64,000 bases of DNA from Ginglymostoma cirratum. Lineage: Eukaryota. Location: positions 15,092,856 to 15,156,855 of the forward strand of contig JAHRHZ010000035.1 of assembly GCA_024137785.1 (NCBI GenBank). The letters run 5' to 3'. Below, piece by piece: positions 19,249 to 57,194 of this stretch. Position numbers and translations under genes: made by a program. Positions within the stretch are counted from its first letter, which is position 1, and the number at the start of each line of letters is the position of its first letter. The notes under the pieces were generated by a model, which saw only the letters and a list, made by a program, of their open reading frames with translations, did no database searches and was not told the DNA's origin.

Positions 19249-19449
19249 AGAGACAAAAAAAACTGCAGATGCTAGAATCCAAGGTGGACAAACAGGAGGC
19301 TGGAAAAATGCAGCAAGCCAGGCAGCATCTGGAGGAAAGGAGCAGTCAATGTTTCTTCTGAAGAAGGGTAACTCCCGAAACGTTGACTGCTCCTTTCCTC
19401 CAGATGCTGCCTGGCCTGCTTTGTTGTTCCAGCCTCCTGGTTGTCTAGC
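19249..19449. mobile_element. Palindromic Penelope-like element, subfamily C
   Basis: Long inverted arms. TSD atgaaact(a/g)tt at 19238-19248 and 19450-19460. Confidence 0.8.
19356..19386 (+). ncRNA. Minimal type I hammerhead ribozyme motif
   Basis: CUGAAGA-A-GGG(UAACU)CCC-GAAAC-GUU. Stem I is only ~2 bp. Confidence 0.6.
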
Positions 19450-20226
19450 ATGAAACTGTTGTCAATCGTCAGAAAAATTCATCTGGTTCACTAATCTTCT
19501 TTAGGGGAGGAATCTGCCATCCTTACCAGTTCTGGCCTACATATGACTCCAGACCTACAGCAGTGTGGTTGACTCTAAACTACCCTCTGGATAATTAGGA
19601 ACGCACAATAAATGCTAACCAAGCCAGTGATGCCTGCATCCCATAAATGATTTTTTTTTAATTACCACAATGCCTGTGCATTCCAATTCCCTCAATTCAC
19701 AGCCAATTTAAACTGAAATCCCACATGGTCTCATTATTTCCAGTTATCACAGTGTCACTATGTATTCCTTTGTATTGCTCTCTATCCATATTTTCCGTCT
19801 CTCTCTATCCCATCAACGCCCTGCTTGCTAACCTGGTTTTCTTTTAGGCAGTGCCTCAACTTTAATATTCTCAGTCTCATTTTCAATTCCGTCTGTAGCC
19901 TGACACTCTCTCCATTTCTGCATCCTCCTCCATCTCCACAATCCTATGACAATATGTATACGTCCAATTCTGACCTCTTGAAAATTCCCAGTTTAAATTG
20001 CTGCATTTTTAGTGGCTATGTCTTCCCTTGCTTTGGTCTGAAGCTCTAGACTGTACTCCTGGAACCTCTCTATATCTCCTCTTTGAGGACATTCCTTAAA
20101 ACCTTCCTCTTTGACCAAGTTTTTGGTCAATTGTCCCACTTACACATGTGGCTTGGTTTTAATTTTATTCAATAAAGCTCCTTTGAAGCATGTTGCGCAA
20201 TTTCAAATCTACTATACAAATGTAAT

Positions 20227-20450
20227 AGCAAGGTGTAGAGCTGGATGAACACAGCAGGCCAAGCGGCATCAGAGGAGCAGGAAGGCTGACGTTTCAGGCC
20301 TAGACCCTTCTTCGGAAAATTTCTGAAGAAGGGTCCAGACCCGAAACGTCAGCCTTCCTGCTCCTCTGATGCTGCTTGGCCTGCTGTGTTCATCCAGCTC
20401 TACACCGTGTTATCTCAGATTCTCCAGCATCTGCAGTTCCTACTATCGCT
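20227..20450 (+). mobile_element. Young palindromic Penelope-like element, subfamily A
   Basis: Near-perfect inverted arms of ~90 bp plus a ~36 nt tail. Perfect 14-bp TSD tatacaaatgtaat at 20213-20226 and 20451-20464. Confidence 0.88.
20320..20352 (+). ncRNA. Minimal type I hammerhead ribozyme motif, intact core
   Basis: CUGAAGA-A-GGGUC(CA)GACCC-GAAAC-GUC. Predicted cleavage after 20350. Confidence 0.7.
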
Positions 20451-21587
20451 TATACAAATGTAATGTTATGGTTGTTGTTGCGGAAAGCAATGCAAGTGAA
20501 ACTGGGGAGGGCTCCATCAATTACACACTAGCTATTCACCTCTGAGCCCAGATCCGTATTCACCCCTGAGTAAGTGGAATGAAGTTGTTCCAAGCTCAGA
20601 TAGTTTTCAATTATTTCCTCGAGTGCCATTGGAAGTAATTATAAATGATAGCACACATGCGTTGTCAGGCAAAATGTCGTTTTTCAATGCATTTGTAGTT
20701 ATTATCGAAGCCACATTGCTGGCAGTTACATATAGGAAACAAGCTACGTATTGTTTTATCCATTCTCAGAACCAAACAACATTTTCCAACATAGACCCAA
20801 CACATTCCCATGCATCAGACAGGTTTTCGACGCTCTCGTGAAGTAGTGTGAACAGATGGTAATCTCCTGGGCTCTGTCTAGAGATGCTATTTCAAATTCT
20901 AACATTGGAAGTGCTTGCTTGTTCCTGGCCTGTGGTAGCAGCCAAGAAGCTGGATACAAATTAGTCTGGAGTAGCTAAATATTCTAATATATTATATTAT
21001 AGAGAAAAAAAATGATTCCACAGAGTGCTACTGAAAAAGGTAGATCCAAAGCATAAAGAGATTGGAAGTTTCATTGATAATTTGTCTCACCAATGTGGGC
21101 TTTCCTGTTTCTCCATTTTAATTTAGAAAGCAGGCAGCAGAATGAAAAGGATGCATTTAGTAGCCACAAGAAGAATTCAATTTTCAAATGATTGTACAAC
21201 ATACAAATGATTAGGCATTTAAATGTGACCAAAGATAGCTCTTTAGAATATATTGGGTGAAAAGGATGATATTAATGGGTTTTGCATTTTTACTATCAAC
21301 TGGCCATCAATATTCACTGCACCTTCACAAATAATTTTTAACAACATGCAATTATGCATTTTTTCTTGTGTGTTTTAGATGATTAAGATTTTAAACACTA
21401 TAGAATTAGGCATTGAAACAAAAAAAACACTAATGGGTTATTTTTGTTTGAAAACTATTACTGATGATGAAAGGTAATGATTAATGACCACTGAAAAAAA
21501 ATGCAGGAATGTAATGTTTTGTCACAGATTTTATCTTGATATTCTGGTGTCAATAACAAAAAAGTATTTTTAGGGGCTATAAAATAA

Positions 21588-21995
21588 TAGCAGTTTGTAT
21601 TTATCTAGTGCCTTTAATGTATAAAATATTGCATGGTATTCCATAGGAGCACTACAAAATGTGACATTGAGTTGCATGCATAAATATTAGATCACCTGAT
21701 CAAATGCTTGGCCAAACAAATAGATTCTAAAAGTGCCACAAGGAGGAGTGTGAGGTAGACATGTAGTGTGTGAATTTTTGAGGTTCAGGCCTAGGGATCT
21801 GAAACCACAGCCTCGAACAGCGAAACAATTAAAGTCTGGACACTCAAGAGGCTAGAATTAGATGAGTGTAGCGAGCTAGAAGGTTTGTAGAGCTGGAGAA
21901 TATTATGAAGATAGGGAAGGGGCAAGGCTAAAGAAGGATTTGAAAATGAGGATGAGAATTTTAACATCAAGACATTGCTTGATAGGGAGCCTAGA
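21588..21995 (-). mobile_element. L2-type LINE 3' fragment
   Basis: gtttgtatttatctagtgcctttaatgt...gcttggccaaa...gaggatgagaattttaa. Confidence 0.7.
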
Positions 21996-22079
21996 AACCC
22001 ACAAGTTGATTTATACTGTTCTACAGGAAAAATACAGTCAGTCAAAGATGCCCAATGGGTCAAACAATTCTATTAACTG

Positions 22080-23225
22080 CTCAAAACAGCAACTTATCCT
22101 TACTTATTGTATTAACGCTAGTAAAACATGCCAAGGTGCTTCCTGGGAATATTATCAAACAACACCTGACTGGGACCTACCTACATGAGTAGATATGAAG
22201 CAGATTATTCAAAAAGATTTTAGGAAGATTTAGAAAGATTTTAAAAAGGTTTTAGGAAGCTTTGTCAAGGAGGCAGAGAGTTAGAAAAATTTAGGGAAAT
22301 AATTCCAGAGCTTAGGGCCTAGGTAGCTGAAGGCACAGTTACTAATGTGGAGCAATTTAAAACGTGGGATGTACAGGTCAGAATTAGATGAAAGCAGATA
22401 TGTTTGAGGGTTGAAGAATGCAGGAGATTACAGAGACATGGAGAGGGTGGCCATGGAGGGATTTTTAAAAATCCCTTTAAAAAGGGTAAGAATTTTAAAA
22501 TCAAGGCTTTGGTTGATCAAGAGCCAATGTAAGCCAGAGAGCACAGGGGTTGTGGGTAAATAGATAGATACAGGTGCCAGTGTTTTGCAGGACTTCAGGT
22601 TTACAGAGCATACAATATGGAAGATCAATGATAAGGTATTGAACAATCAAGCCTAAAATTAACAAAGATAACAAGGTGTAGAGCTGGATGAACACAGCAG
22701 GCCAAGCAGCATCAGAGGAGCAGGAAGGCTGACTTTTCGGGCCTAGACCCTTCTTCTGAAATTAACAAATGTCTGCGAGAACATTTCAGCAGTTGATGAT
22801 CTAAGACAGAGACAATATCAGGCAATGCTAGGCAGGAGGAAATACACAGTCTTAGTAAGGCATAGATTTGTGATCAGAAGTTCATCTTGGGAGTCAATCA
22901 TGTCACCAAGTTTGCAAACAGCTTTAATCCCAAACTGTTGACAGGAACAGGAGTGGAGACAGTTACTGGGGGATAGTGTCTAAACAAAAATCTATTGATT
23001 TGGTCCTCCCAATATTTAATAGGAAAATGTTTTTGCTCTTTCAATATTGAATGTGGGATACACAGTCTTTTAATTTAGTAAGGTGGGGAGGGGTCGAGAA
23101 ATTGGTGAGGTACTGCTCAATGTTCTCAATCTACATGTGAAAACAAATGATACGGTTTTGGGTGATATTACTGAGAGGAAGTGTGCAGCCATGAAATTGG
23201 AGGGGATCAAGGAGAAATTCTACTA
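22080..23225 (-). mobile_element. L2-type LINE fragment (~1.1 kb) with a nested Penelope-like insertion
   Basis: ORF 22428..22646 contains PTTPVLSGLHWLLINQSLDFKIL, the L2 ORF2 HITPVLxxLHWLPxxxRIxFKIL motif. Confidence 0.8.
22667..22758 (-). mobile_element. Single-arm Penelope-like element, subfamily A, hammerhead core mutated
   Basis: Matches one arm of 20227-20450. 11-bp TSD aaattaacaaa at 22656-22666 and 22759-22769. Confidence 0.85.
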
Positions 23226-23372
23226 GACAGATTCTACAGCTGTATTTGATGCGCATGTTTTGTTAACATGAATAAAGAGGTGTATAAAAGTGTTCATATA
23301 GAACCTATAACACCAGTTCTTAGACAGATAAAATTAATGTTAAAAATAACGGAAGCTAGTTGTTCAACATAC

Positions 23373-23464
23373 TTGGAATTCCTGATACAAGTTTCAATGG
23401 CCGCAGAACTCGGACAGCCCTCAACGTTCTCAGATCAAAGTCTGTTCCAACAGTGGCTAAAATC
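23373..23464 (-). CDS. CACNA1B: Cav2 alpha-1 subunit internal exon (equivalent to human exon 4), domain I S3-S4 voltage sensor: (G)[30 protein letters not shown](S)
   Basis: Manual minus-strand translation gives the S4 R/K-x-x repeat. Acceptor tgcag ends at 23465 and donor gtatgt starts at 23372. The exon is 92 bp, and its final A joins the GT starting the next exon to form Ser. Confidence 0.9.
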
Positions 23465-25680
23465 CTGCACAAAGATAAAGATTGGAATATTAACTTCTCT
23501 GTAAAATCAGCACACAAAGAAACAAAATTAGCCTGAAGTATACACAGTACTTAAATACATCATTGTGCTTAAAAAGAACAGAACAGCACTTACAAATTCT
23601 GATCAATTTATTCAATTTTTTTATGTTTGATGGATCTTTTATGTTGATTTCTGCTGAGTAGATACAGCTTTACAATAACAAACATGCCAATTAGGTAATG
23701 GCTTGCTACATCTCAATCCATTATACGCTCAATCCTTATGAGAGATGAAGACAAAGTGGGGGAGGGAAGAGAGCAAGAGAAAAGCTGCTTTAATATATCT
23801 TTCAAGCCATGCTTGTGAAAAGTTCACAAGTTCTGGCTGGCTTCCAGAAAGATTAATATTTTCCCACTGAGTCGGTTTAGCAGATAGTCTTGATGAATTT
23901 GACAAGTTCACTTGAGGGTGCTGTTGATACAAAATCAATATAAAAATACTGAGTGACTTTGGGAGTGGAATTCGTCCTCAGCAATAGTTAAGCATGTTCT
24001 ATTTCAGGAAAATAATTGGTTAAGGCTAGGTCTGGACCAAATGCTTTTACATTTAGTTGTTTGGTATTACAAAGCTTTTAAGTATTACCAATTCACAATA
24101 ATATCAATTTGAGGGCAAACCAATACTTATTTTGTATGAAAAAACAATGCTGATTCTTTGGAAAATTGAGTCTAGTAGACCCATTGCCATAGACAATGCA
24201 CTAGTGAATGATGACTGACAGATAGGTAACAGGCTTTGTTCAAATTTTAAACTGGCTGGATTGGTTCTGAAACTTAAACAAAACCTGACAGTTAACTGCC
24301 AGCTATCATTAGCAGGTGTATTTTCCATGGCAATGTCTCTACTCATAAATTCCAATGGCCAACAGTCAGCAGTCACTTCTCATATAGGACAAATGGTAGT
24401 TTCTTATTACATTGTTGTTCTTGCAAATTGCCTTAATGAGTTCAAATACAAAGCTTCAAAAACATGTCTTTTTTCTGCAATATGTTCTCATTTATTTACA
24501 GACCTATACTTACAAACTAACCCAATAACAAGTGTATTTGTATCAGGCTCAAATGAATACCCATCACTTACATATGATTAGGTGTAGGCAATCAACACAA
24601 TATGCATAGTGAATAACACTTAGTGAATTCTAAGCCTTTTTTACTCCTTTTTTTTGTCAAAAACTTCAGTGGAAAATAAAATCAGGTACAGTGTATAACA
24701 GGCTGCTTACTCAGTGTAAAATTGTGATGCTTATATCCTTGAAACCTCTCAGGATCCTGCTTTGTTTCAAGGCCCAAATGCCTTAATGGGTATTGGGAGA
24801 TAAGAGCTAACCACTGGAACTGTGGCTGATGATTCTGTTATGCAACCTCCTCACTATGGCTACGAATAGATACAATGCAGTCCATTCTACAACTGGGGCC
24901 ATCATGGAGTAGGTAATAGGCCTCCTAAAGATGAGATTCCATAGCTTTGATTAGCCTGGGGCAGATGGCCTTAGAGTATTGTGTGACACTTAATCCTTGC
25001 ATGCTGTGTTCTGCACAACTGGAGCAGGCAAAGAGGAAATATGATAAATACTGAAGAACTGGGAGCGATGCAGTAATCTTATGAGGATGAAAATAAGGAT
25101 ATTGTGCAGAACAAACATCAACTGTAGCATGATAGGACACTGCCGCACAAGCATTAGCAGTAAGATAGCACCAAAATTACATCTGTGTCCAATAGATTTG
25201 AGTTGCGTGCAGTGATCATTCATTGACAGTAAATTTGTCATTGCTTGAAAGTAAAGCAATCCTTTTGGTCCCCAGAGGTGATGCAGTTCTGTCTGTACAT
25301 TTTTCCTTTGCTGTTGCTCAATAAAATGTAATGCTTCAACTGTTTGGAGGCTTTCCAACATGCAGTGCTCCCACATTGAACAGTGAGAAGATGAAATGCT
25401 ACACTGAGCATTAGATCCGATTCTAACGTGGTAAGGCACTAAGAACAGATGGCTGTGCAACCTGATTCTTGTAGCTGCAGTTACAAAGATAGCCAATCAG
25501 ATAAGAGATGTTGTAAAATAGCAGTACATTTATAATTATGAGGTTCCATTTACAAATGAAGCGTCGCCTATGTTTGTTCAGAAGCTTAACTTTCCTGTTT
25601 CCTTTCCACCACATGGACTGTGATGAGCTATTTGTGGGTGGACCAGGTGCACAGCTAGGCTTTCAATATAATATTCAAAT

Positions 25681-26008
25681 GTAAAGGTGAATGTAGGTGG
25701 AGAGTTAGGGAAGGGATAGGACCTATCGCCTCCCTAACTCCCCACCTACATTCACCTTTACTGGCTCCAACCCCGTCTCTTTGACCTGTCTGTCTCCTCT
25801 CCACCTATCTTCTCCTTTATCCATCTTCTATCCGCCTCCCCCTCCCTATTTATTTCAGAATCCCCTTCCCCTCCCCCATTTCTGAAGAAGGGTCTCGACC
25901 CGAAACGTCGGCTTTCCTGCTCCTCTGATGCTGCTTGGCCTGCTGTGCTCATCCAGCTCTACACCTTGTTATCTCAGATTCTCCAGCATCGGCAGTTCCT
26001 TCTATCTC
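25681..26008 (+). mobile_element. Longer Penelope-like 3' fragment (5' fold-back, pyrimidine tract, hammerhead, subfamily A terminal repeat, tail)
   Basis: Hairpin 25681-25720/25722-25761 with 37/40 complementarity, C/T-rich 25762-25881, then subfamily A sequence. Confidence 0.85.
25879..25911 (+). ncRNA. Minimal type I hammerhead ribozyme motif, intact core
   Basis: CUGAAGA-A-GGGUC(UC)GACCC-GAAAC-GUC. Predicted cleavage after 25909. Confidence 0.7.
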
Positions 26009-26329
26009 AGCTTATTTTGGAAGTCTTGTGTCAGGCATGCCATTAGTATGTTCCACCTAGCACCAGCTGACTGATTGTAATCAGCACCTCCATGCTAGGG
26101 ATGTTGCCTTGAACAAGGAAATTGATACTGGGACATTTATCCCACAGTTTGACTTGCAAGACTTCATCAGCTCATGTCCCAACCTTTTTTTCAGGATATT
26201 TATGATCACATGTTTGAATGCGTTCTCTGGCTCATTTAAATTTTCCATTTTTTTTTCTTTTATTTCCTTTCATTAGAGTTCAGATTGATAACACTGTTAC
26301 AAAAATATCTAATTAGAATTCTTGTACAG

Positions 26330-26885
26330 TCTGAAACATAAAAGGCAAGAGATACTATTGGATCTTTATCAAAATCTTAAATTAAGAGTGACACATACTT
26401 TATTGACAGTGCACTATATGTCAGAAATTAAAGGTTTAGAAAGAACATGACACAGAATAAAAAGGATTCTGCCTAACTGTAAGAAAACAGATGGAAAGAC
26501 AAATTGCAGGACAATGTAATAGAAGCTTTTGAAATTTTGAAAGGATAGTTTAGGGTCAATAGAACCAGACTATTTGCAGAAGCTGGGATGTCAAGAATGA
26601 GAGACCATAGACAGAACATTGAACATGTTAAATTTAGAGAACAGGGTACGAGAATCTTCACAGGCAGTTGTTGAAGGTGTGGAATTTACTTATAAAGTTA
26701 TTAACTGAGGCAGAAAACATGTCCACATGGAAGATCAGATTGGATAAATATTGAGAGAAAATGGGTTGAAGAGATCGGGAAACCAGGTAGATCAATGTGA
26801 TTAGAACTATTAGTTTACATGGAGAGTTTATATGAAATATGACACAATTGATGGGCGGGATGATCAATTTCTGTGTAATTCCATG
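26330..26885 (+). mobile_element. Old CR1 LINE 3' fragment
   Basis: atagaagcttttgaaattttgaaagga, gtcaagaatgagagacca and ttcacaggcagttgttgaaggtgtggaat are decayed CR1 ORF2 end motifs. Confidence 0.6.
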
Positions 26886-28231
26886 CAGATGCCACTCACG
26901 ACTCAATCAAATGGGGAATATAGATTAATTGTTTCAAAGCTTTAGGAGATGTTGATATCCTCTAAATCAAACAATGTACCGATTCATTTGCTATCTCACT
27001 CTTTCTTCCTTCATCACAAAAAGGAAACATAAAATTTCATCTAATGGCAAGCTACGTGTGAAGAAATCTTCTTGGATTCTGTGTCCTGCAGCTAGTCATT
27101 TTGTGGTACGGAGTGCATTGTTGAAAAGAAACATTTACTAAAACTTTTCATTTACCACTTATCAGAACAATTTGCAAGAAGACCAATGTAAAGGGAAGGC
27201 AACATCTTTACGAGGAGGAAGTACTGATTCATTTGCAAGTGGACTCTGATCGGTAGAGGCATTGCCATGGAAAATGCAACAGTTAGACGATGACCAATAA
27301 TTAAACACCAAATCTCGTTTAAAATTAAATCAGACAGCTCAAAAACTTTAAGTCATTTTTCTTTGATATTGCTCCACCTGTGGCATCTGTATGAATAATC
27401 TCAGCAGCCATAATCAGATTTAAATTGTTTTTCCTATTTCTTACTGAAATGATTTTTAGCATATTACTTGAATTCTTGACATTGTAAATATTGAAGAGTG
27501 TTTCAAGACCCTGGTAACATTTTTTTTGTAAACACTGAATTATCTCTTCCTTCTCAATTCCCCAGTGTTCAAGATCCAAAGGAAAAAGAAACATAATCCA
27601 AAAATTATTGGGAAGCCATGTTAAGTTCCCAGTAGGCATCAATGGAGATTGTTGTAAAGGCCATTTACATCTCAAGAAGTAATAATTGATCCTAAAGCAA
27701 TTGGCTAAATCTTTGAAAAATTCTTTTAGGATGCATGTTTTACCTCCCCACCCCCTCCACTGTCTAATATTTTGGTTTTTTTTGGAAGTTAAGCACACCT
27801 GAGGATTTGTTTATTACTTACTTCCACACATTAGTTAATGATAATATCAAAATGCCTGAGTAAAAAATCATACTGTAAACCAGTGACAATATAAAGGGAA
27901 GCTCAAAAGATCTTATTTGCATAAATGGTTTGGGAAACAGCTGCCATGGTAGTGAAGCCTCAGAGTTTGAATACCCTGAAAGTGAGATGATGTTTAATGA
28001 ATATAGCATGCTTCCAACAGATACTTTGCTAATAATCCAACTAAGACAGTATACTATTCATACCGCTTGAAATAAGTCAATTGTGTGCTAATCTAATGAA
28101 ACATTAAGGATGTTAAAACATCTCAAAGGTGTGTTTGGTGCTGATGACATTGAGCCATCTGGATGGGACCATTGATTTGCTGGGTCAATTCTCTCATTCC
28201 ATACAAGGCAATTATATATACCAAACTACTG

Positions 28232-28509: not shown

Positions 28510-28720
28510 AAATAAAAGCAAAATACTGTTGATGCTGGAGGTCTGAAATAAGAAGGGAAAGTGCTGGAGAAACTCACCAGATCTGGCAGCATGTGTTGAG
28601 GGAGGAACAGAGTTATTATTATAAGTCCGATATGACCTTTCTTCAGATTGTTAACTCTGTCTCTCTCTCCATGTATGTTTCTTGCTTGCTCAGTTTCCCC
28701 AGCACTTTCTGTTTTTATTA
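28510..28720 (-). mobile_element. Older palindromic Penelope-like element, subfamily B-like
   Basis: Arms gaaagtgctggagaaactca / tcagtttccccagcactttc, tail aaatactgttgatgctgg, and minus-strand ctgaagaaaggtca remnant. Confidence 0.7.
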
Positions 28721-30294
28721 CTGGAAGTTAATCACTTAAATCTCCAAATGCATTGATCATGGTTGTGGCTCTTTACTGCTGCCAATCTCCAGAATTTAGA
28801 TTATTGATTTCCACATTTGCTTTTAGCCAATTTTCCTTTGGAGTGAAACAGTCTACAATTACATTCTCATTACGGAAAATAATGCACAGTCGAGCAAGGC
28901 CAACATGTATATACTAGGTTTGCCAATACAAAGTGAATTTTAAGTCATCATGCACAGTGTTACCTGGAATAATCTTTTACAAGTAATGCAAAATATAGAA
29001 TAACATGACTAACACTATGGTTTTGTGATGTTCCAATAGCAGAAAGCAGAAATTTTGTGAAAGCGATACTTGATTTCTGTCACCAGATTCTGAAATCAAT
29101 ATACTTTAATAAGCTTGAAGTAAACACAGAAAAATGAGGCAGAATTACTCTGTTGCTATGGTTCCACTTTCTGAAACAATTTGGTTACGAATAGAAAGCC
29201 CCTGACAATTAACGTAAGATTTCTGACACCATCATATTGAGCTTTTCTTTGTTTTCTAAGTGATGAGATCCCAGTTGAGAAATCGTATACCTTCAGAGTC
29301 ATCAAACTGTCGTTACATATTCTACCCTCCTCCTCCAGATGACAGAACACGAGCGTCAACTGCCAGGAAAGCACTGAGAGGAACTGAAGATGCCTGTGAG
29401 CAGCAGCCATTACACTTCAGTGAGAAAGATAAAATAGGCAGATTCTGTAAATGGTAGCGCACATTTCTCTCCAAATCTTACAAACAGTGTCATGTCTGCT
29501 CCACTTGAAAGATTCCTGCAAAGCTGCAAGAGCAGAAATGAAGTTCTGTCACTACATTCTTGTTGTTTTTAACCTTAGTGCTGCAGATTTGTCATTCCAT
29601 GAACTGTGCGTTTGTGAGCACTAGCTGAGAAGGAACCACAAGTAACTTCTATTTTCCTCCCAAAATACTTAAAAGTGTTCTTAACGAAAGAGCCATATCT
29701 ACCAAAACTAAGAATCAAGACAAACTAATGACATCTGGGTTTCCCTAACCATCAAATTTGCTGAGACAAGATGGTATTGTTGTAACCAAGTCTCCAAATC
29801 CAAACTCAGCAGAGACAATGGGCAACAAGTGTCAAAACCGTGGCCAAATAAATATAATTGCAATTCCTGATCAGTTTATTTGGGAATTGATAACTACAAA
29901 GCAGAGTGGATCCAGTGCATCACATTTTATTTCCGATATTTATTCCCAAATTCGTATAATTTTGGTTCTTGTTCTTCTTCTTACTTTCTTCTGCCCTTTT
30001 GAGTTTGAAGCCCTTTCTATAGGAGAAAGGTTGCAAGTTATTGCATCTTTTTTTTCTTTATTGGTTCAATTCTCGGAAAATAAGAGTGAAATCATGGTGC
30101 CTGCCAGTATTAATGCACAAGAACTCGAGAAATGTGTGATGAGAGATACTCCAGAGGTTGCAACTTCCTACAAATTATTGAGCTACTTGCTCCAATTTGT
30201 CTTTGAAAAAGAACAGACGTTCACTGTCCATCTTCCCCAGAAGTGTCAGGAAGTTGTTGAAATTGCACTGTAAAGATGACAGTCACCTTTAGAG

Positions 30295-31441
30295 CTTTTT
30301 GTTTGCTGATGGGATGTGGAAATTGCTGACTAAGTCAGCAGTTATTACCCATCCCTAATTGCCCTGAAAAGGTGGTGGTGAGCTGCCCTTTTGAACTGCC
30401 ACAGTTGAAAACTTGGGCTGTTGAGACAACCACAATGCTGGTAGGAAAGGAGTTCCAGGATTCTGGCCTAGCTGTAGTGAAGGAGACACAATTTCAGTCC
30501 GGGTCAGGATGGTGAGTGGTTTGGAGGGGAATTGTAGGTGGTGGTGTTCCCCTGTATCTGTTGCACTTGTCTTGCTTGCTGGTAGTGGTCGTGGGTTTGG
30601 AAAGAGCTGACTAAGCAGCCTTGGGGAGTTGTTACAGTTCGTCTTCTATATGTTACACACTGCTGTCATTGTGTCTCTGTGGTAAGGGGAGTGAAAGTTG
30701 AACGCACTGGATGAGAGCCAATTAAGTAGGCTGCTTCATCTTGTATGAAGTCTCTATAGTGTTGTTGAGTACGTAGAGAGAATTTTTTCATACTTGTCAC
30801 TTGTGCCATGTAGTAGGCGGACAGGCAGTGGGGTGACAGGAAGTGAGTTATTCGCCACAGACATCTTAGCCTCTGATCACATTGTCACAATGTGTATGTG
30901 GCTGGTCCAGTTCAATTTCTGGCCCCCAGCTTGTTAATAGTGCGGGATTTAGTGATGGTAGTGCCTTGAATATTAGGGAGCTTTGGTCACATTCTGTCTT
31001 GGTTGAAGGTTGTCATTTACTGGCATTTGTATAGCTCAAATATTATTTGCCATTTATTAGCTGAAGCCTGGATATTGTCTAAGTCTTGTTGCAAATAGGC
31101 ACAGACTGCTTCACGATCTGAGTCACCTTAAATGGTGCTGAACATTGTGTAAATCATCAGTGAATATCCCATTTCTGCTCTAATGATGGAGGGAAGGTGA
31201 TTGATGAAGCAGCTAAACATGACTGGCCTTTGGACGCTGTGCTGAGAAACTGCAGAAATATTTTGGATCTGAGATGATCGAACTCCAACAATCACAACCC
31301 TTTTCATTTGTACTGGGTGCGATGTCAAGCAATGGAGAAATTTCCCACAATTCCCATTGACTTTGGTTTTTATTAGGGTCCCTTAATGCCATACTCAATG
31401 TTGCCTTGGTATCAAGGGCAGTAACTCTCACCTCACATTTC
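30295..31441 (-). mobile_element. CR1-clade LINE fragment (RT to 3' end), a second family distinct from the HER1-like one
   Basis: ORF 31128..31328 FSCFINHLPSIIRAEMG resembles the RT segment preceding the FADD motif. The 3' tail gggcaattagggatggg is shared with SINE-B. Confidence 0.8.
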
Positions 31442-32010: not shown

Positions 32011-32249
32011 GGAACAAAAACAAAGTTGCTGGAAAAGCTCAGCAGGTCTGGCAGCATCTGTGGATGAGAAAACAGAGTTAACGTTTCGGGTCCGGTGATC
32101 CTTCCTCAGTTCTCAGGAAGGGACACTGGACCCAAAACGTTAACTCTGTTTTCTCCTCCACAGATGCTGCCAGACCTGCCGAGCTTTTCCAGCAACTTTG
32201 TTTTTGTTCCTGATTTACAGCATCCGCAGTTCTTTTGGCTTTTATTTAA
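32011..32249 (+). mobile_element. Young palindromic Penelope-like element, subfamily B
   Basis: Inverted arms of ~95-100 bp plus a ~38 nt tail. Perfect 14-bp TSD tggcaacataattt at 31997-32010 and 32250-32263. Confidence 0.88.
32077..32110 (-). ncRNA. Minimal hammerhead motif, core intact, stem I lost at the inversion junction
   Basis: Minus strand CUGAGGA-A-GGAUC(ACCG)GACCC-GAAAC-GUU, with one stem II mismatch. Confidence 0.5.
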
Positions 32250-35200: not shown

Positions 35201-35388
35201 TTTTAGTCCCCTAATTGTCTCTGAAGGAATTAACGATTCTGGCTACCTGACAACCCTAGAGGCAGCAGTACATCCCAACGTGAGATACTTCACAGCAATG
35301 TGTTCTGAACTGAGTGCTCACTTCTTTCATGGGGAAACTTGACCATTGTGCAACAATTGGAAATTAACTCAGAATACTTTAGCACCTA

Positions 35389-35735
35389 GGAGAGGTGATG
35401 GTTTAGTTGTATTATCAGTAGACTGTTAATCCAGAGACCCAGGTAATGTTCTGGGCACCTGGGTTCAAATCCCAGCCACAGCAGAAGGAGGAATTTGAAT
35501 TCAATAAAAACCTGAAATTGATGATGACCATGAATCAATTTTCAATTGTCAGAAAAAGCCCATCTGATTCACTTATGTCTTTTAAGGAAAGCAATTACTG
35601 TCTTTAGCTAGTTTGGCCTACATATAATTCCAGAGTCACAGCAATTCGTTGACTCTTAACTGACCTCTGGGCAATTAGGAATGGGCAATAAATGCTAGCT
35701 TAGCCAGTGACACCCTCATCTGTGAATGAATAAAA
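35389..35735 (+). mobile_element. SINE-B copy
   Basis: Full-length homolog of 8799-9190. Confidence 0.85.
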
Positions 35736-36556
35736 CCCTATAGATAAGGATACATATATTATACACACACTACCATTCCCCACAGCAAGCCAAGTACAGT
35801 TTTACAGCTGTGACGTTTATAAGATAAGTAACTTTTTGGACTGCATCTTTAAATTTAAGGCAAAATGAAGAATGTCATGTCACCTGTACTGAGTGTGCCT
35901 GACAACGATCTGGGTCATAGGTCAATTACATATTCAAGAAAGGCCTACATTATTTTACTGGGAAGGAGTTGCAGATTCACATTTGCAAGCAATTGCAAAT
36001 GCACTTATGATGCCAAAGGACAAACCACAGGTCTGCAAGTCTAAGGGAATTTGTTAAAATGTCAGGTTACAAAAGCGTATGCTTTGAACCATCCATCTGA
36101 TTCTAGAATAGGATAAATTTGAAGCATAAAGGGTAGCTAATCAGCATTTCAAGTTATATAAAAGGTACACATGATTCACTTTGCCATAGAGAAGGCTGCA
36201 GAGAAAGACATTATAAAGTCCTTGTTGCAGCCTTTACTGAAATATCATTATTAGATGGTGAGCCTGTCAGGATTCAAGAAAGGGAGAGTAACTATTGGTA
36301 GCACAGAATGTCATAGTTCACCTTGAAAAATGTGAATGCGAACTTGCACTCAGATTGGAAAGACAAAATTCATAGGTAGCTATGTCAAGGTTAGAAGAAC
36401 AGCTTAGTTTTACCTAGAGAGAGTCAATTACAGGATAACCCATAGCATAAATGACAGTCTGGAAATTTTTAACTCCAGAACTAAGGAAGGAAAAAGGCAA
36501 GACACTTGGGAGCTAAGAATCATTTTTATACCAATTCTGAGAGAATTGAATATCTA

Positions 36557-39391: not shown

Positions 39392-39470
39392 TAGAAAATA
39401 AAATATACTGGAAATCACAGTGGGTCAGGCAGCATCCATGGAGAGAACAAGCTAACATTTCAAGTCTAGA
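39392..39470 (-). mobile_element. Decayed single arm of a subfamily B-like Penelope element
   Basis: ctggaaatcacagtgggtcaggcagcatccatggagagaacaagctaacatttc. Confidence 0.5.
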
Positions 39471-40172
39471 TGAATATAGATTGGCGATAGTCTTTTTAAT
39501 TGAACAAGTTTTCTTTAAAAAGAAAATCTTTGTGCCACACTCTAGGTCTATGTAGAACAAGAGGCTCATCCACCACAGTAACAGCAATAAATTCAGACAT
39601 TGCTGAATCTTTCAGTAGATCATATTTCTATACCATGGCAACATCACAGAGACTGAAACTCAACAACTCAGGCTGAAATCAGGAGGAAGCAATACATCCT
39701 TCATTTGAACAGACGAGGCTAGTTCACAGTGTATCAAATTTGAATATATTTTGACAGCTGAATTATTTTATTAAATTAAATCAAATTCCAGCAGCTATTG
39801 CAGATATTGTCCACAATGATTGGCAACAAAAATGAAGATTAATATTGCACTGAATCACGCCACCATTAGCGTCATACTATGTAACAGCTGTCAAAAACAT
39901 TTGCAATTCAATCACAGTGTGAGATGAATGAGTAAATTTCACCTAATGCAACAAGTGGCTTCTGAGCTGGGCTAAGGTCACTTACCTAACCCTGCCTATT
40001 CTGACTAGCAAGGGTCCCTAACGTCTGTTTTAAATAATGTTCACGGGTATCTGAAGATTATCTGAAGCCACAGTGGTTACCACAGTATACAAGTGGGAAT
40101 ATTCAAACCTCAAGTGACATTTCAAGAATGTGAAGAGGCTAACTGGATTAAGCAACATCGAATCTACTAACC

Positions 40173-40348
40173 TACATCTCTTCTGAGAAGTTAGAGGAGG
40201 ACATCATAAGGGGGTGCTGCCTTAAAATGTAATACAAACAACGGAGAAGTATAAAATTTATGCAAAACCAAATGCAGCAACATTCAGCAAAGAAATCTGT
40301 TCACTGGATTATTGGAGGCAGGTAGCACAGAAAAGAATACCTGCCTTG
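40173..40348 (+). repeat. ~175-bp direct repeat, copy 1
   Basis: Aligns end to end with 42258-42432. Confidence 0.9.
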
Positions 40349-40455: not shown

Positions 40456-40800
40456 TAGAGTCATAGAATCCCTACAGTCCAGAAAGAGGTCATTTGATCC
40501 ATATGTCTCCAACCACCCTCTTTAGAGCACCCCACCCGACCCCTACCTTATTCCTGCATCCCTGCATTTAGCATCGCCAATCGACCTAGCTTCCCCATCC
40601 CTGGACACTACAGAATAATTTAACATGGCCAATCCATCTAACCTGCATATCTTTGGACTCTGGGAGGAAACCAGAGCACCAGGAGGAAACCCACACAGAC
40701 ACAGGGGAGAATGTGCAAACTCCACACAGACAGTCGCCTGAGGCTGGAATCGAACTCGGGTCCCTAACAATGTGGAACAGCAGTACTAGTCACTGAACCA
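40456..40800 (-). mobile_element. HE1-type V-SINE
   Basis: Reverse-complement homolog of 999-1357. Confidence 0.85.
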
Positions 40801-42257: not shown

Positions 42258-42432
42258 TACATCTTTTCTGAGAAGTTAGCACAGGACATCATGAGGGGTT
42301 GCTGCCTTAAAATGTAATACAATGGAGAAGTATAAAATTTGTGCAAAACCAAATGCAGCATCATTCAGCAAAGAAATCTGTTCACTGGGTTATCGGAGGC
42401 AGGTAACACAGAAGAGAATACCAATTGCCTTG
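42258..42432 (+). repeat. ~175-bp direct repeat, copy 2
   Basis: Aligns end to end with 40173-40348. Confidence 0.9.
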
Positions 42433-45521: not shown

Positions 45522-45765
45522 TTAATAAAATCAAAATACAGGGGATGCTGAAAATCTGAAACAATCACCGGAAATGCTGGAGAAACTCAGCAGGTCAGGC
45601 AGCGTCTGTGGAGAAACAGAGTTAACGTTTCAAATCCAGTATGAACGACTAAAGAAGAGTCATAAAGAAGAGGCATACTAGGCTGAAAATTTTAGCTCTG
45701 TTTCTCTCTCAACAGATACAGCCAGATCCACTAAATTTTTCCAACATTTTGATTGTTTTGCATTT
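45522..45765 (-). mobile_element. Older palindromic Penelope-like element, subfamily B-like
   Basis: Tail aaatacaggggatgctg, arms gagaaacagagtta / tagctctgtttctc, and a duplicated central aaagaagag. Confidence 0.7.
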
Positions 45766-49762: not shown

Positions 49763-49953
49763 ATAAAAACCAAAAGAATTGCAGATGCTGTAAATCAGGA
49801 ACAAAAACAAAGTTACTGGAAAAGCTCAGCAGGTCTGGCAGCATCTGTGGTGGAGAAAACAGAGTTAACGTTTCGGGTCCAGTTCTGAGGAAGGGCCACC
49901 GGACCCGAAACGTTAACTCTGTTTTCTCCTTCACAGATGCTGCCAGGCCTGCT
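49763..49953. mobile_element. Young palindromic Penelope-like element, subfamily B
   Basis: Near-identical to 32011-32249 in the opposite orientation. Perfect 14-bp TSD gagtataatgcctt at 49749-49762 and 49954-49967. Confidence 0.88.
49881..49918 (+). ncRNA. Minimal type I hammerhead ribozyme motif with 4-bp stem I
   Basis: AGUU-CUGAGGA-A-GGGCC(ACCG)GACCC-GAAAC-GUU-AACU. Stem I is AGUU/AACU, with one stem II mismatch. Confidence 0.72.
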
Positions 49954-51074
49954 GAGTATAATGCCTTTATTAGGAAAGCCATAACTGTTGAGTTTACTCA
50001 GAACAGCAGATCTCATCAAAGGAAAAGCTGACACTAAAATTATGCAATCCTTATTAATGCCATGCTTCATTGGCTGTATCTTCGGATTGTAGGCACATTT
50101 GAAGTCAGCATGAATAAGGTCAGTGAGTTGAACAGAGTGGAAAGGACAGGGAGTGGGCATTGAGTATCTGTTCTTAATCATGACCTAATGTTGGAAAATA
50201 AATATATGACCGTCACACGACAGGGGAAAATCCCAGCACAAATGAGTGCTGGGTGCTAAGTATTCCTGGATAAAGGCACACAGGGAAATTGGGAATATCA
50301 ACACACTGCATGATTATTCGGTATTTACTGTTTTAATGCTAAAAAGATCCTTTGTTAAATAAAACAGTTTTGTCACACAAATTGAACAGAAGTTCAATAT
50401 AAAATATTTCGATGAAGACATTTCTTGAATACTGCAACAAAGCCTTTGTGATACCTACTGGAACATTAAAATAAAGCAACAGGTCCCAATTTGCACATTA
50501 GACGTAATGTTGTTGACTTTGATATTACTTATATTTTTGACCAGTTCAGGGATGTCAATTTAAGAAGTCACGCATCAGTGTGGATATGGTTTTGCAAGCA
50601 ATGTTATACATAATTTAATGGCTCTTTTGAAAGAGGTACACATGAAAAGAAAAACAGCTCTACTTTGGCCTGGTTAAATACTGAATCAAAATGTTAATTA
50701 CATCAGTGAACACGTCTTTTTTTTTGTTAAAAAATCAAAGCTCTGTCTGTGAAAAGGCAATGAGTCACCTTGTGAAGCACACGAAAAGAGTAAGCCGATT
50801 CCAGTGGTGTGATTTAATGGGGCTTTAGAAAGACTTTAAAAATTAGGCAGGCCTTTTGATACATGCTTGTTTTGTAATAACAATGAAATCCTTTTGAAAG
50901 TCAGTTGGAAAGCCTTTCTTACAGTATAGGCGCTCTTGACCTGTTCTGTTAACACATTCAAAGGCAAAGGAGTATGGTCTATATAGAAACTGAAGGGTAT
51001 AATTTCTTCTGCACAGTTCATGTTATGTCATCCAGGGCTGATTAATGAAAAAAAAAACAAAAACTCTCTCACAA

Positions 51075-51420
51075 CACCATTACCAAAAGAAAAATGACTG
51101 AGAGTTAAGAGGAGACATTTGGATAGGTAATAAGATGTAGGTTTTTAAGGAGCACCTTAAAAGGTAGAAAGACAGGCAGAGAGGTTTGGAGAGGGAATGT
51201 CAGAACTTGGGCTCTATGTAATGTAAATCACAGTTACCAATGGTGCAGTGATTAATATCAAGGACAAGGAAGGGGCTCCATTTGGACAAGCACGGAGAAC
51301 TTTAGATTGTACAATTAGCAGAGGTTACAGAGTTCGTGGGAAGGAGAGCCTTGGAGGCATTTGAAAACAAGGAAGAAGATTTTTTTTGGAGTGTAGCTGT
51401 ACCATATAGAAGCCGGTGGG
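51075..51420 (-). mobile_element. L2-type LINE 3' fragment
   Basis: gtaggtttttaaggagcaccttaaa...gagggaatgtcaga...atttgaaaacaagga. Confidence 0.65.
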
Positions 51421-51550
51421 ATTCAGTCAAGTGTCCTCCCCATATCTTCCAAATTCGCAATGCTAGAGCATGATGTATCTGATGGAAATTTACTCCCAAG
51501 TTGGTTATGATGTTACTGTACTTAACACAGAGGAAATCCTAGCATCTTAA

Positions 51551-51912
51551 GGGGAGGCAATGACCAAGTGGTATTATCAGTGGACTGTTAATCCAGAGAC
51601 CCAGGTAATATTTTCGGGAACCAGGTTCAAATCCAGTCATGGCAGATGGTAGAATTTGAATTCAATAACAAAAATCTGGAATTAAGAATTTAATGATTAA
51701 TCCATTGTTGATTGTCAGGAAAAAACTCATCTGGTTCACTAATGTTTTTGGGAAGAAAGCTGCCATCCTTACTTGGTCTGGTCTAGTCTGGCCTACATGT
51801 GACTCCAGACCCAATGTGGTTCACGCTTAACTGCCCACTGGGTAATTTGGGATGGGCAATAAATGCTGGCCTAGCCAGCAATGCCCTCATCCAGTGAATG
51901 AATGAAAAAAAA
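51551..51912 (+). mobile_element. SINE-B copy
   Basis: Full-length homolog of 8799-9190 with an A-tail. Confidence 0.85.
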
Positions 51913-52034
51913 CTCCCATGTTAAGTATTTTCCATTAAACATATTGATGGATCATTTCTTTTTCAGGTCAGAGGCTGGAGATTCTGTGTGAACAACTCAT
52001 CTTCTAACTCTCTAAAACCAGTCCACAATCTGCA

Positions 52035-52535
52035 GGACACATGAGTGTGATGAAGGAGTCTCCATTGGCCAGGATAAGCTCAGCCCAATCCAGGACAAAC
52101 GACCCTACCTGACTGGCACCTTCTACATTCAGTCCCTTCACCACCAATGCTGTGGCAGCAGTATGCACCATCTACAAGGTTCACTACAGCAACTCACCAA
52201 GCCTTCTTCAACAGCACCGTCCAAACCCATAACCTAAAGCAGCTCTGAAAGGACAAGGGCAGAAGATGCATGAGAGCACCACTACCTACAAGTTCTCTGC
52301 TAAGTTGTACACCATTCTGACTTGGAACTATATGCTCTTCCTTCACTGTTGCTGAGCCAAATATCCTAGAAATCCCTATCTCACAGCAGTGTGGTTGTAC
52401 CTACTTGGACCTCTTTCCATGAACTACAGTAGTTCAGGAAGCTGACTCACTATCACCTCTTCAAAGGCAATTAGGCATGGGCCATTAATTGCTGGGTTAG
52501 CTAGCAATGCCCAACTCCCATGAATAAATAGATAA
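52035..52535 (+). mobile_element. CR1-clade LINE 3' end (same family as 30295-31441)
   Basis: caccatctacaagg..cactacagcaactcaccaag...ggcaattaggcatggg...catgaataaata. Confidence 0.8.
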
Positions 52536-52759
52536 AATGTTTCCCATTGAATGTAGACCTTTGGGATTTCTTTATCATTCAAAACAGGGGCAGGGCAAAC
52601 AATGAAATGGGGCAACAGGCCTCAGACACGGTTCAGCCCCTGTTCCTTCTTTTCCTAATTTTATGTCCTGTTACATTCCGTATGTGTACATATCCTTTAT
52701 CATTTTCTCCTTAATGGCCCAAAATAAATGTTAAAATATTTAAACTTATGTACATCATA

Positions 52760-52912
52760 ATCTGCCATCCTTCCATTGGTCTGGTCTACATGTGACTCCA
52801 GACTTAACTGGCTTCTGAAATGACCAGGGAAGTTATTCAGTTCAAAGGTAATTACGGATGGACAATGAGTGCTGACCTTGTCAATAATGTCCATATCCTA
52901 TTTAAAAAAAAA
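52760..52912 (+). mobile_element. SINE-B 3' half
   Basis: tctgccatcctt...tctggtctacatgtgactccagac. Confidence 0.6.
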
Positions 52913-53751
52913 ACCAAAAGAATTCCTCCTCCTCCAATGGAGTATGTCCCAGTTTCTCAAGTTTCCTTCTAACTAGATTTTTTTTTATTTTTGGCATCAT
53001 CTTGGTGAATCAAAGCTGTGTTTTAAGTTATGTTTATAATCATCTTGTATGTATCTAATCACTGTTAAATGGGCACATGCTATAAAATAAACTTCTACCC
53101 ATCTTCACTTCATTGTGTACTGCTACTTGTTTAAATATGCTTTCTGTCTCATGCCCATGCAAATGACCAGCTAGCCTCTTCATTGTTGCTCAATGCACTT
53201 TTGGGCAGCTTTGCACAGCCAATAAGCTTGCGAAAATTCTGTCAGAACTGTAAAGCAATAGCTCAAAGCAGAGAGAAAGGAGGGAAAGTAATATAGTTGC
53301 AGCTGGAACCCCAACAGATAAGAAATGATCTAAATAGAAAACAATTCATAGCAAGCATTTGAACCATCTCCAATTTATGGCAGTAAAATAATACTTATCC
53401 TAGTTTTCCATCCACAAGATCATGGTACTTTTGAATATTAAAATGTTTTGCTGTTTTCCAGGAACAGAATTAAGTAGCATGCACAAATTTGTCCTGGGTT
53501 TTGTCCGATCATATTCCAGTTCAAGAAGTATCAATCTTTTGATTGTTATAACCTAGAGGTGAAAGGCATGCAGCCATGAATGATTCCCTAGCTGTTGCAA
53601 TGGATCTAGAGTACTGCTGGAGGTCATCTTGAATTTCATCAAAGCACTCACAGTTTCACAGAGATGTGAGATGTTGCTGCTGCACAATAATCCTTAAGCT
53701 TTTCAGATAGTTTCACTAAAATATGAAGTACCACTGAAGGTCATCGCTTTT

Positions 53752-53970
53752 CAACATGGTTCTCAAAGCAGGGGCTGGGACCTCAAATGGGGTCGTGAGC
53801 TGAAGTTTTACGTTTGCAGCGTCCAAGGCAGCAATGAGGGCTGTGGAGTTCAGCCTAAGTCATAGTGACCATGCTCCTGGTCTAACAGGCCTTCGCTCAG
53901 ACAGGTCTCATTGAGAGGTTGTGAGGATTTTCAATGGGTCACAGAGTGGGAAAGTTAACAAAGCACCTCT
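53752..53970. mobile_element. Possible hAT/Charlie-type MITE remnant
   Basis: One end reads tggttctcaaagcagggg..gggacc..ggggtcg. The other end is decayed. Confidence 0.35.
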
Positions 53971-54026
53971 TTACAACACAAAGATAGTTTTTTTTTGTTA
54001 TGGAAAACAGCTTTTGCTGAGAACTT

Positions 54027-54380
54027 TTTTTTAACAATTCATTCGCGGGACATTTACATCACTGGCCTACATTTATTTCTTATCCCTAGTTAAGAACCTC
54101 AGTTAAGCTTCAACCATATTGCTATGGGTCTGCGGTCACAAACAGGCCAGACCAGTTAAGGAGGGCAGATTTTCTTCCTAAAGGACATGAATGAACCAGA
54201 TAGGTTTTTACAACCATCAGCATGGTTACATGGTCACCATTTAAAATTCAGATTTTTATTGAATTCAAATTTAACTATTTACCAGATATCTGTGGATTCG
54301 AAACCATATCACCAGGGTTATTAGCCTGGACCTCTGGATTACTGAGTCCAGTGATAATACCACAAAATCACCACCTCCCC
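54027..54380 (-). mobile_element. SINE-B copy
   Basis: Reverse-complement homolog (tgaaccagat, tgaattcaaatt, ctctggatta, agtccagtgataatac). Confidence 0.75.
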
Positions 54381-56162
54381 ACATGAGAATGAAAGAGTAA
54401 ATATAAGGATCCTTTTCAGTTAGGCTATGACTGAAGTAAATCACTGATGCATGGACGATAGTGTTCATACAACGCACTCTTACATTTCACACTAATTGTA
54501 GAAATAGGCTTTAACGAATTTGCAGATGAGATGCGCTGTGATATTGTAATTGTGACTTCAGTAACAATATGATAAAGATTCTGCTCAAAGGTTGGAACTA
54601 GACAACTCTAAACAGTAATGTGTTCTGCTAAATCATTACGCACATATATTAAATAAATTCTGTTTGTTAAAAAACAACTTGAGGTCTAAGCCTGAGCTTA
54701 TTTTAACAGATTAACCCGTACTAATACAATAATAAAGTTTTAAACACTACTTCTGCTGTAAAGCATTTTGGCAAGTCTTGAAGTTGTGAATTTTTTTTGC
54801 TATCTGCAGATTGTTTGTTAGACATGCAGGTAGCACGGTTATGTAATCATGCTGAATCCAACAGCAAAGGTGAATGTGATATTCTATCCAGCAAAGAACT
54901 TTGGTGATCCACAGAAACCCAGTTTACGAGTTCTTGCACGATGTAAATATCCTTTTTTATAAAAAAGAAGTCTGTATTCTATCAGAGCACTCTAACAGTG
55001 AAACAGATTTAGCCTGCAGGGGTTATTTACTACATGATGACAAAATACCTGGAGTCACCATCAATTTTCTAATGTTAGACAAATAGCCAATAACTTTGTG
55101 ATGTGTCTATTCCCATTTCTTTACCATTAATGTATACTTGCACTTCACTGACAAATTTCTTTTTATTTTGAGGAGAATAGGCTTAGTTGGCCGTAGGGAC
55201 TGATGGGCAGCTTTTTACAAGCTCTTCCACGGTATAATGGCCACCGCTAGTATTCCATATTTTAAATAAAATTGAGCTTCTCCCATATTATACTGATGTC
55301 AAGTTATTTATTGTTACAAGGTTTGAAATTTTACTTGATGATATAAATTAAGGTTTTGTTTGCAGCTGGAGAGCACTCTTTGGATAACTGCTTGTGCACA
55401 TAAAAATCATTCTTCAAACTTAAGGATCTAGTGAGACAATGGTAATGCTTCACCTCTCAGCTAAAAGGTCCAGGTTCAAATATTTTCATTTTACAATTTA
55501 TAGGCACGGCAACTAGATTTAGTCCTTCTACTGTAATAAATGGCAAGGACAAAAGGCTGATTGAAGATTAAAAAAATCATGGAGAAATGGATAGGAACCA
55601 AAGTTAGGGAGCTGACAAAGTTTCCGACTGATCAGGGTAGGGACTTTACAAAAATAAAGTTTATAAACGTGTGAAAGCATGGAATGGAATTTTCCCCTCC
55701 CAGGTGTGGTGTGAGCATTCACTAGAAAGGCGGGAGAATAGAGTGAGAATTTTAAAAATCTTATCTCGATATCAAGAAAAGTTTTCCAATTTTCCCCTTA
55801 AGCTGAAAAGGGGACTTCTTAGTCTCACCATTGAGTCATGGCCTTATGTCTATGCATTAGCATCTCATTATAACTCTAACTCTCCTCACTTACACCAGCT
55901 ATCCAACTTTGCTGAGAATCTAGATGGTGCATAACCCTAACATGTAAATCAGACTAAGTACCTGGCACTGCAGTTCAAAAATTGCTTGCTCCAGCCATTT
56001 TGCAAATGCTTCTTCATGATAACATCTCTGCATCCTCCAGCGCCATCATCCTCCTTGACCTTTCATCCACACAAATCACCAGCCTCCCCACAGCATCATG
56101 GGATAACAAGCATGGGGCTGAATGAACACAGCAGGTCAAGCAGCATCATAGGAGCAGGAAAA

Positions 56163-56197
56163 CTTGACGTTTCGGGCCTAGATCCTTCATCAGAAAA
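56163..56197 (-). ncRNA. Minimal type I hammerhead motif in host-gene sense orientation
   Basis: UUU-CUGAUGA-A-GGAUC(UA)GGCCC-GAAAC-GUC-AAG. Stem I is UUU/AAG, with one stem II mismatch. Confidence 0.65.
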
Positions 56198-56214
56198 GGG
56201 TCTAGGCCCGAAAC

Positions 56215-56614
56215 NNNNNNNNNNNNNNNNNNNNNNNNNNNNNNNNNNNNNNNNNNNNNNNNNNNNNNNNNNNNNNNNNNNNNNNNNNNNNNNNNNNNNN
56301 NNNNNNNNNNNNNNNNNNNNNNNNNNNNNNNNNNNNNNNNNNNNNNNNNNNNNNNNNNNNNNNNNNNNNNNNNNNNNNNNNNNNNNNNNNNNNNNNNNNN
56401 NNNNNNNNNNNNNNNNNNNNNNNNNNNNNNNNNNNNNNNNNNNNNNNNNNNNNNNNNNNNNNNNNNNNNNNNNNNNNNNNNNNNNNNNNNNNNNNNNNNN
56501 NNNNNNNNNNNNNNNNNNNNNNNNNNNNNNNNNNNNNNNNNNNNNNNNNNNNNNNNNNNNNNNNNNNNNNNNNNNNNNNNNNNNNNNNNNNNNNNNNNNN
56601 NNNNNNNNNNNNNN
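56215..56614. other. Assembly gap, 400 N
   Basis: Run of Ns. Confidence 1.
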
Positions 56615-57194
56615 GCTGCTTGACCTACTGTGTTCATCCAGCCCCATGCTTGTTATCTCGGATTCTCCAGCATCTGCAGTACCTTTTACCTCTCCCCACA
56701 GCATCATGTCTGCTCTCAGATCAAATCAGGCACCACTTCAACCACTTTACATTGGAACTCAGAGAATCCTATGGCTCCATGCTTATGCTGGGTCACTGTA
56801 TGCACAGGGACACACATGTATTTGCATAGGATGCACCTCAGAGTGTTTACTTAGTGCTCACTCACTTTACCATTTACTTGGAGGCTGCAGCCTCTATGTA
56901 CTTCACATTGCTTTTTTCGCACATACTCAAGGATTTCAGCACTAATTTACAGGCTGCCAGTTCTTGTGCGACCCCTGAGCACATAGGATCCTTAGTGCTC
57001 AGTTACAGATTGCCAGCTCAATGGTTTTCATTGAGTTTTAGCGCAGAGAGGGAGGGACAGGCAGCTAGTAACAATGGGGACGACCAAACTGTCAAGCTAT
57101 CAGTCAGACAGCAGAATGGATGTCACTGACTGGCACCATGTCATATCAATATCAGTGCTTGGACCAAAGCGATTGACAGCATTTATAATAATTT

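Follow-up and report, generated by a model that had tools for sequence, protein, structure and literature searches.

A 64,000-nt window of the nurse shark Ginglymostoma cirratum genome (4.36 Gb; assembly GCA_024137785.1, contig JAHRHZ010000035.1, positions 15,092,856 to 15,156,855 of the forward strand) contains short, partly palindromic repeats with minimal hammerhead ribozymes, a known kind of element, the termini of Penelope-like elements (PLEs), with further members here. With a probability of about 0.65, the short repeats are run-off insertions of a hammerhead and its leader of ~95-130 nt, derived from several PLE families encoding a reverse transcriptase (RT) and a GIY-YIG endonuclease (EN). 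BLAST with seven arms from the window as queries gave 15 clusters representing 14 loci; the arm at 56615-56692 is part of the 56102 element, from which it is separated by a run of 400 N. The 13 starts listed in the initial annotation were all recovered, but the list was incomplete, lacking a 70-bp fragment at 39405 detected by BLAST. Six CUGANGA...GAAAC cores are located at 19358+, 20323+, 25882+, 49885+, 32109- and 56193-, at the positions and on the strands reported before. Calling all six intact was an overstatement: the stem II GGG/CCC of 32109- and 56193- is broken by G>A, leaving 2 bp, and these two fail the structural hammerhead descriptor passed by the other four. A stem II of at least 4 bp together with a stem I of at least 3 bp was found in 0/6 cores; core 49885 has a stem I of 4 bp and a mismatch in stem II. 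The inverted arms behind the description of the elements as palindromic are real, but clear head-to-head pairs account for only 8 of the 14 loci, a ninth (28511) having a decayed partner. Neither a tRNA gene nor a long host open reading frame (ORF) was found in the window, and tblastn of the PLE protein against it gave no match; the RT/GIY-YIG ORF is not present in the window itself.

For comparative counts, the window was combined with five readable genomic blocks into a sample of 845 kb, four all-N blocks (600 kb) being excluded from every count. The sample includes 219 arms at 163 loci, with inverted pairs at 56 loci, and its density of 1 locus per 5.2 kb agrees with the earlier estimate of about one per 5 kb. 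The hammerhead scan proposed in the initial annotation was positive with the structural descriptor (46 motifs in the sample versus 0 in each of 10 shuffles; ~240,000 motifs in total by extrapolation), but the Rfam scan of the window revealed no hammerhead family, only microRNA (miRNA)-hairpin matches, all sub-threshold, because the palindromes mimic hairpins. Such matches, together with small size, palindromy and target duplications, would also suit miniature inverted-repeat transposable elements (MITEs, DNA-transposon derivatives) or miRNA-like hairpins. This possibility is negligible, given the unequal arms, variable centres and many single-armed copies, and is refuted by the contiguity of the arm with RT/GIY-YIG sequence.

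A genome search with 25760-26010 returned copies sharing up to ~2-2.5 kb of upstream sequence, which holds YIDD-RT and GIY-YIG frames. The longest natural open RT-EN frame comprises 452 aa (locus L023) and contains both YIDD and GIY-YIG; in Pfam it matched GIY-YIG with E 1e-4 (22.9 bits, above the cut-off) and RVT_1 with E 1.5e-5 (below the cut-off), and the top Atlas cluster for the PLE protein contained RVT_1 at 41% and GIY-YIG at 17% (score 0.97). A CCHH motif with two cysteines between GIY and YIG (VVYCIRCSRCGLLYIGET...H...H) was recognized by eye in the PLE frames, and the CX2-5CxxC linker between RT and EN is present as CNRRKCYTC (CX4CxxC). This linker is absent from Penelope/Poseidon (PMC8557442). 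By motif, rather than by RT phylogeny, the elements are assigned to the Neptune-type endonuclease-positive (EN+) PLEs. Families B (32109, 49885) and C (19358) possess RT/EN sequences of their own, ~50-60% identical in protein, which lie directly upstream in sense at 4/30 and 7/30 loci, respectively; at a fifth family-B locus they are on the inverted arm. The PLE origin suggested in the initial annotation is thus confirmed: in families A, B and C alike, the termini lead on into reading frames for RT/GIY-YIG. The search it had recommended for coding PLEs with the same termini was successful, though the copies are broken. At three of 30 loci retrieved with an N-terminal probe (L259, L260 and L262), the core and arm lead without interruption into an ORF that begins ~165 nt past C3 of CUGA, the base from which all positions below (-4, +94, etc.) are counted. 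The arm is therefore the element's leader, a second copy of which forms a pseudo-long terminal repeat (pseudo-LTR) at the 3' end: the ~130-nt unit is the 3' pseudo-LTR of the PLEs and, in tandem copies, the 5' leader running into the ORF. The same three loci have a low-complexity Thr/Ala/Pro region of variable length between the N-terminal domain and the RT.

The 3' ends of the arms are bimodal, ~32 nt apart, with peaks near +94 and +126/+133 and spans of about +91 to +101 (tail-less) and +122 to +135 (tailed), and 48 of 53 scorable pairs consist of one tailed and one tail-less arm (p 3e-10). Palindrome centres are distinct in 49/51 pairs, which indicates that the palindrome is built anew at each insertion. 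Target duplications of at least 8 bp were found at 47/125 loci versus 3/125 controls (652-kb subset). Long copies are built likewise; their inverted arms reach 1.6 kb and are without the tail. Both arms belong to the same subfamily in 25/27 pairs and share 5 rare variants versus 0.56 expected, which argues for priming of both strands on one RNA. The traits of EN+ PLEs found here include the partial-tandem pseudo-LTR, the inverted 5'-truncated copy, the 30-40-bp tail at one end and the target duplication; the palindromes are instances of the 'inverted copy plus tail' arrangement already described for PLE insertions. Many young palindromes have runs of N in the middle or at the margin (56215-56614; L111, L113, L114, L116, L120, L125, L128 and L137), and the count of long palindromic copies may therefore be too low. 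In all families, the leader sequence GAUGCUG (+44..+50) and the tail sequence CAGCAUC (+105..+111) are complementary, e.g., at 20366-20432 of the window. The 7-bp helix predicted between the two RT start sites is kept in 13 arms with zero compensatory changes and can serve as a lead only.

The 5' ends of 205 readable arms are concentrated at the hammerhead edge, which is sharp at -3 to -5, with 86 in -7..0, 1 in -30..-8, 30 beyond -30 and 88 inside. Solo arms show the same edge with a mode at -4, and the family-B ends peak at -4/-5. Genome-wide exact-match counts of the perfect family-A core, which are lower bounds, decrease from at least 33,253 (-2) and at least 31,326 (-3) to at least 22,509 (-4), at least 19,020 (-5) and at least 16,674 (-6); about half of these cores drop the upstream sequence within 4 nt. 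A 5'-end peak was also looked for at the cleavage site, where only 1/41 (A) and 0/11 (B) internal ends lie, indicating that the templates were uncleaved. Families A, B, C and D share the edge motif YCAKTY (CCATTT, TCAGTT, CCAGTC), presumably initiator-like, and helix I starts at its A. A G directly precedes the -4 A in 1,433/3,489 non-C cases (41%; background ~23%), with no excess of G at -4 itself (794/8,817, 9%), as would be expected of a cap-templated base; a capped template end at -4 may be inferred from this pattern. Loose contig ends, as distinct from transcript ends, agree with the edges seen in the genome and were located at -3 and +93 to +96 in 4/4 public runs for family A, and at -3/-4 in 2/4 runs among the matches listed for family B.

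Ordinary 5' truncation of PLEs with fold-back or self-priming could also produce such a pile-up, the edge then being a microhomology or a splice/processing site instead of a transcription start. An inverted copy plus tail, palindromic junctions and a self-priming model have been published (PMC3846280, PMC8557442), many junctions have short overlaps or inserts, and the B, C and D edge is a quasi-palindrome adjoining a CAG acceptor-like site. This explanation is nevertheless unlikely, since partnerless solo arms show the same edge, the family-A edge has CAT rather than CAG, only 1/205 arms ends within 23 nt upstream of the edge, and the short copies have no upstream exon sequence in common. The edge was separately considered as a splice acceptor; the sequence fits families B-D and not A, and the B ends peak at -4/-5, not -2.

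The family majorities have the layout of minimal type I hammerheads (CUGANGA-N-stem II-GAAA-palindromic pair-UH with a short helix I), as previously stated. Also in line with the initial annotation, the catalytic core is kept between families while the stems differ: stem I co-varies (AUUU/AAGU, AGUU/AACU, AGUC/GACU) around a fixed core, which points to selection on the master elements. The core-versus-flank check it had advised gave a different result within subfamilies, where the core changes no more slowly than the leader. Core A/T sites were mutated in 13/499 cases versus 128/3050 in the leader (p 0.11), core G/C sites in 8/174 versus 130/3170, and the catalytic G12 at its CpG in 14/68 versus 44/238 at other CpG bases. 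Compared within subfamilies and for the same type of base, the core decays after insertion as fast as the leader. Folding of an RNA that covers the full palindrome predicts pairing of the GAAA half with the antisense arm in 5/6 window elements; an RNA starting inside the palindrome at -4 would escape this pairing. Cofolding gave an ACGU dimer helix in 3/6 window units, and dimer cleavage of PLE hammerheads was reportedly the subject of a 2017 RNA Biology paper. Further minimal hammerhead families, in which stem II is longer and which have no relation to the arms studied, were observed in the sampled blocks (C9: 28190+, 79191+, 171917-; C12b: 148303+) and probably represent further PLE clades.

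The initial annotation regarded the repeats as a non-coding, PLE-derived family of short interspersed nuclear elements (SINEs) with ribozymes. On this view, those short arms that retain an internal promoter, the transcription start and both sites of RT initiation would themselves be transcribed and mobilised again in trans, behaving as a non-autonomous SINE derived from PLEs or as a monomeric retrozyme. Short family-A arms indeed outnumber long ones (84 vs 18), the old family D is nearly all short, and the products would be indistinguishable from run-off stumps. The internal promoter of Penelope lies wholly within the pseudo-LTR (PMC2377424), pseudo-LTRs suffice for trans-mobilisation (PMC3846280), and non-autonomous PLEs such as MRC1 are known (PMC8557442). 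However, long members occur in all four A subfamilies (long/short arms 5/20, 3/14, 6/10 and 4/40). No short-only subfamily was found among these four, the sample being small and family D poorly constrained, nor a lineage of fixed structure apart from its coding partner, as a SINE or non-autonomous PLE should form. The palindrome centre is not shared between loci, and the core, including G12, decays at the leader rate, being intact in 15/30 short versus 16/18 long A arms (with age as a confounder); the predicted pairing of the core with the antisense arm also stands against this model. Head-to-tail tandem hammerhead units of the retrozyme kind are absent from the window, where loci are solo or head-to-head, and no tandem arrays occur among the loci studied. 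A self-propagating ribozyme SINE is thus not supported, and trans-mobilisation of short arms is judged improbable. The earlier claim of recent activity holds for at least one subfamily, in which 8/16 arms match the column majority exactly.

In the favoured scheme of run-off insertion from coding PLEs, the enzyme of the element would nick AT-rich DNA, and reverse transcription would start at one of two sites in the leader (about +94 and +126). The RT would then run to the 5' terminus of an uncleaved transcript, whose start probably lies 4 nt ahead of the hammerhead core, and fall off there. Where both target strands are primed, one per site (+94 / +126) and probably on the same RNA, short overlaps would join the two cDNAs head to head, at a point that varies between insertions, giving a palindrome. 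Priming at the first leader of the RNA would yield stumps, and priming at the downstream pseudo-LTR long copies; the ribozyme would be a passenger, selected in master elements only. In a more specific and tentative version, somewhat less likely to be right than wrong, initiator +1 would be the first helix I base, and a dimeric RT would prime one uncleaved RNA twice, once per start site. Most events would then yield head-to-head fusions of 100-130-nt strong-stop cDNAs, and several hundred thousand copies would record the start, the priming sites and the one-site-per-strand rule; each copy, with its promoter and ribozyme, could be re-mobilised.

Several observations weigh against run-off insertion of leaders from coding elements. 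The edge is not a single base but is spread over -2 to -5, with 12% of copies still lost at -6, and in B-D it has the quasi-palindromic, CAG-adjoining sequence noted above. Among solos, the G excess is found only in family A (5/10 non-C; 0/6 in B/D), and it could stem from target microhomology or partner arms. The ends from public runs are contig ends only, of runs whose type is guessed, and no transcript end was observed. In Drosophila virilis Penelope, helix I marks the end of an intron, and transcription starts ~120 nt before the hammerhead (PMC4209133, PMC2377424). An upstream ORF remnant was found at only 1/30 loci of the old family D, an intact full-length ORF was never seen, and all ORF-joined copies are broken. 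The number of distinct junctions is inflated by BLAST edge noise, and the share of long arms differs between A subfamilies (4/44 vs 6/16). In pooled data, mutations are slightly rarer in the non-CpG core than in the leader (21/660 vs 256/4903, p 0.02), also in family B (14/375 vs 149/2266, p 0.04), a deficit attributed to subfamily mixing.

Compared with known systems, the elements share with Neptune-type EN+ PLEs (PMC8557442; PMC3846280) the order of RT and GIY-YIG, the linker, the two GIY-YIG cysteines, the hammerhead pseudo-LTR, heavy 5' truncation, the inverted copy, a 30-40-bp one-end tail and target duplication. In contrast, about half of the nurse-shark loci stop at the hammerhead 5' edge, giving elements of ~100-250 bp at 1 per 5 kb, a class with no description in the available parts of those two papers. 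As in metazoan PLE hammerheads (PMC4209133), helix III is missing, an extra base precedes stem II, G10.1-C11.1 and the palindromic 15.2/16.2 pair are present, and helix I has 4-5 bp. Cervera and de la Pena (2014; PMC4209133) reported that the motifs mostly occur singly, 'probably related to truncated PLEs', and also noted close pairs on opposite strands, with ~4,000 motifs in coelacanth and ~9,000 in Xenopus by another descriptor, versus at least 33,253 exact family-A cores and the extrapolated total here. The anole Poseidon element PAc studied in vitro (Frangieh et al. 2024, PMC11167929) likewise has two internal RT start sites defining the tail; both target strands are cleaved and extended, hammerhead cleavage is dispensable, and zero reads end at the cleavage site. 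Its strands showed no start-site difference in vitro, whereas one site each was used in 48/53 double insertions here, and the PAc ORF starts inside the hammerhead rather than ~165 nt downstream. Non-LTR retrozymes (PMC7229834; bioRxiv 10.64898/2026.07.22.740005) are also non-coding, with type I hammerheads and kinship to PLE pseudo-LTRs, but form head-to-tail tandems that give circular RNA, unlike the solo or head-to-head units here, which have the same sequence as the termini of coding PLEs. No description of the 5' edge, the G excess, the one-site-per-arm statistic or the families was found in the literature searched, Repbase/Dfam, where the families may be recorded, and most subscription papers being outside its scope.

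The window loci are listed in Table 1. The copy at 25684..26008 has a small fold-back (25684-25758) at its 5' end. A SINE-like interspersed family of ~400 bp is present at 8796-9189, 19094-19659, 35388-35739, 51550-51910, 52779 and 30313-30367(-); the family C pair at 19249..19447 was inserted within its 19094 copy and, splitting it, is the younger of the two. A second SINE-like family (78-84% alike, both orientations) occupies 1100-1263, 11624-11883 and 40540-40800, and a direct repeat of 104 bp (93% identical, 2.1 kb apart) lies at 40238-40341 and 42319-42422. Frames at 6943-7344 and 63450-63878 resemble C-terminal RT remnants of CR1/L2-type long interspersed nuclear elements.

Table 1. Hammerhead-related PLE insertions in the window (strand "." denotes loci without a single orientation).
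Position	Strand	Family and structure	Core	Target duplication
1..129	+	Family A tailed arm, begins at -3 of core, N upstream	CUGA mutated to CAGA	
5474..5661	.	Old (B/D-type) inverted pair	Decayed, 5535	
13934..14099	.	Old (D-type) inverted pair	Lost	
19249..19447	.	Family C inverted pair: tailed arm -, tail-less arm + with core	19358	~11 bp
20225..20447	.	Family A inverted pair: tail-less arm - (20225-20318), tailed arm + from -4	20323	14 bp
22666..22762	-	Family A solo tail-less arm, 5' end -4	Mutated	~14 bp
25684..26008	+	Family A 5'-truncated copy, tailed, 166 nt into PLE 3' untranslated region	25882	
28511..28730	.	Old D-type tailed arm on - (28511-28647), partner decayed		
32011..32245	.	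Family B inverted pair: tail-less arm - with core, tailed arm +	32109, stems broken	14 bp
39405..39474	-	Old arm fragment		
45523..45758	.	Old D-type inverted pair		
49763..49956	.	Family B inverted pair: tailed arm - (from +18), tail-less arm + with core	49885	14 bp
56102..56692	.	Youngest A subfamily inverted pair spanning 400 N (56215-56614)	56193-	17 bp
62353..62435	-	Youngest A subfamily solo tail-less arm, begins within stem II	Without CUGANGA	

The objects themselves are ordinary dead PLE insertions, and their statistics bear on the PLE transposition route and the purpose of the hammerhead. Uncleaved templates, one start site per arm, shared rare variants and a fixed edge are direct predictions for an in vitro PLE assay, and genome-wide hammerhead counts in such genomes mostly tally decaying passengers.

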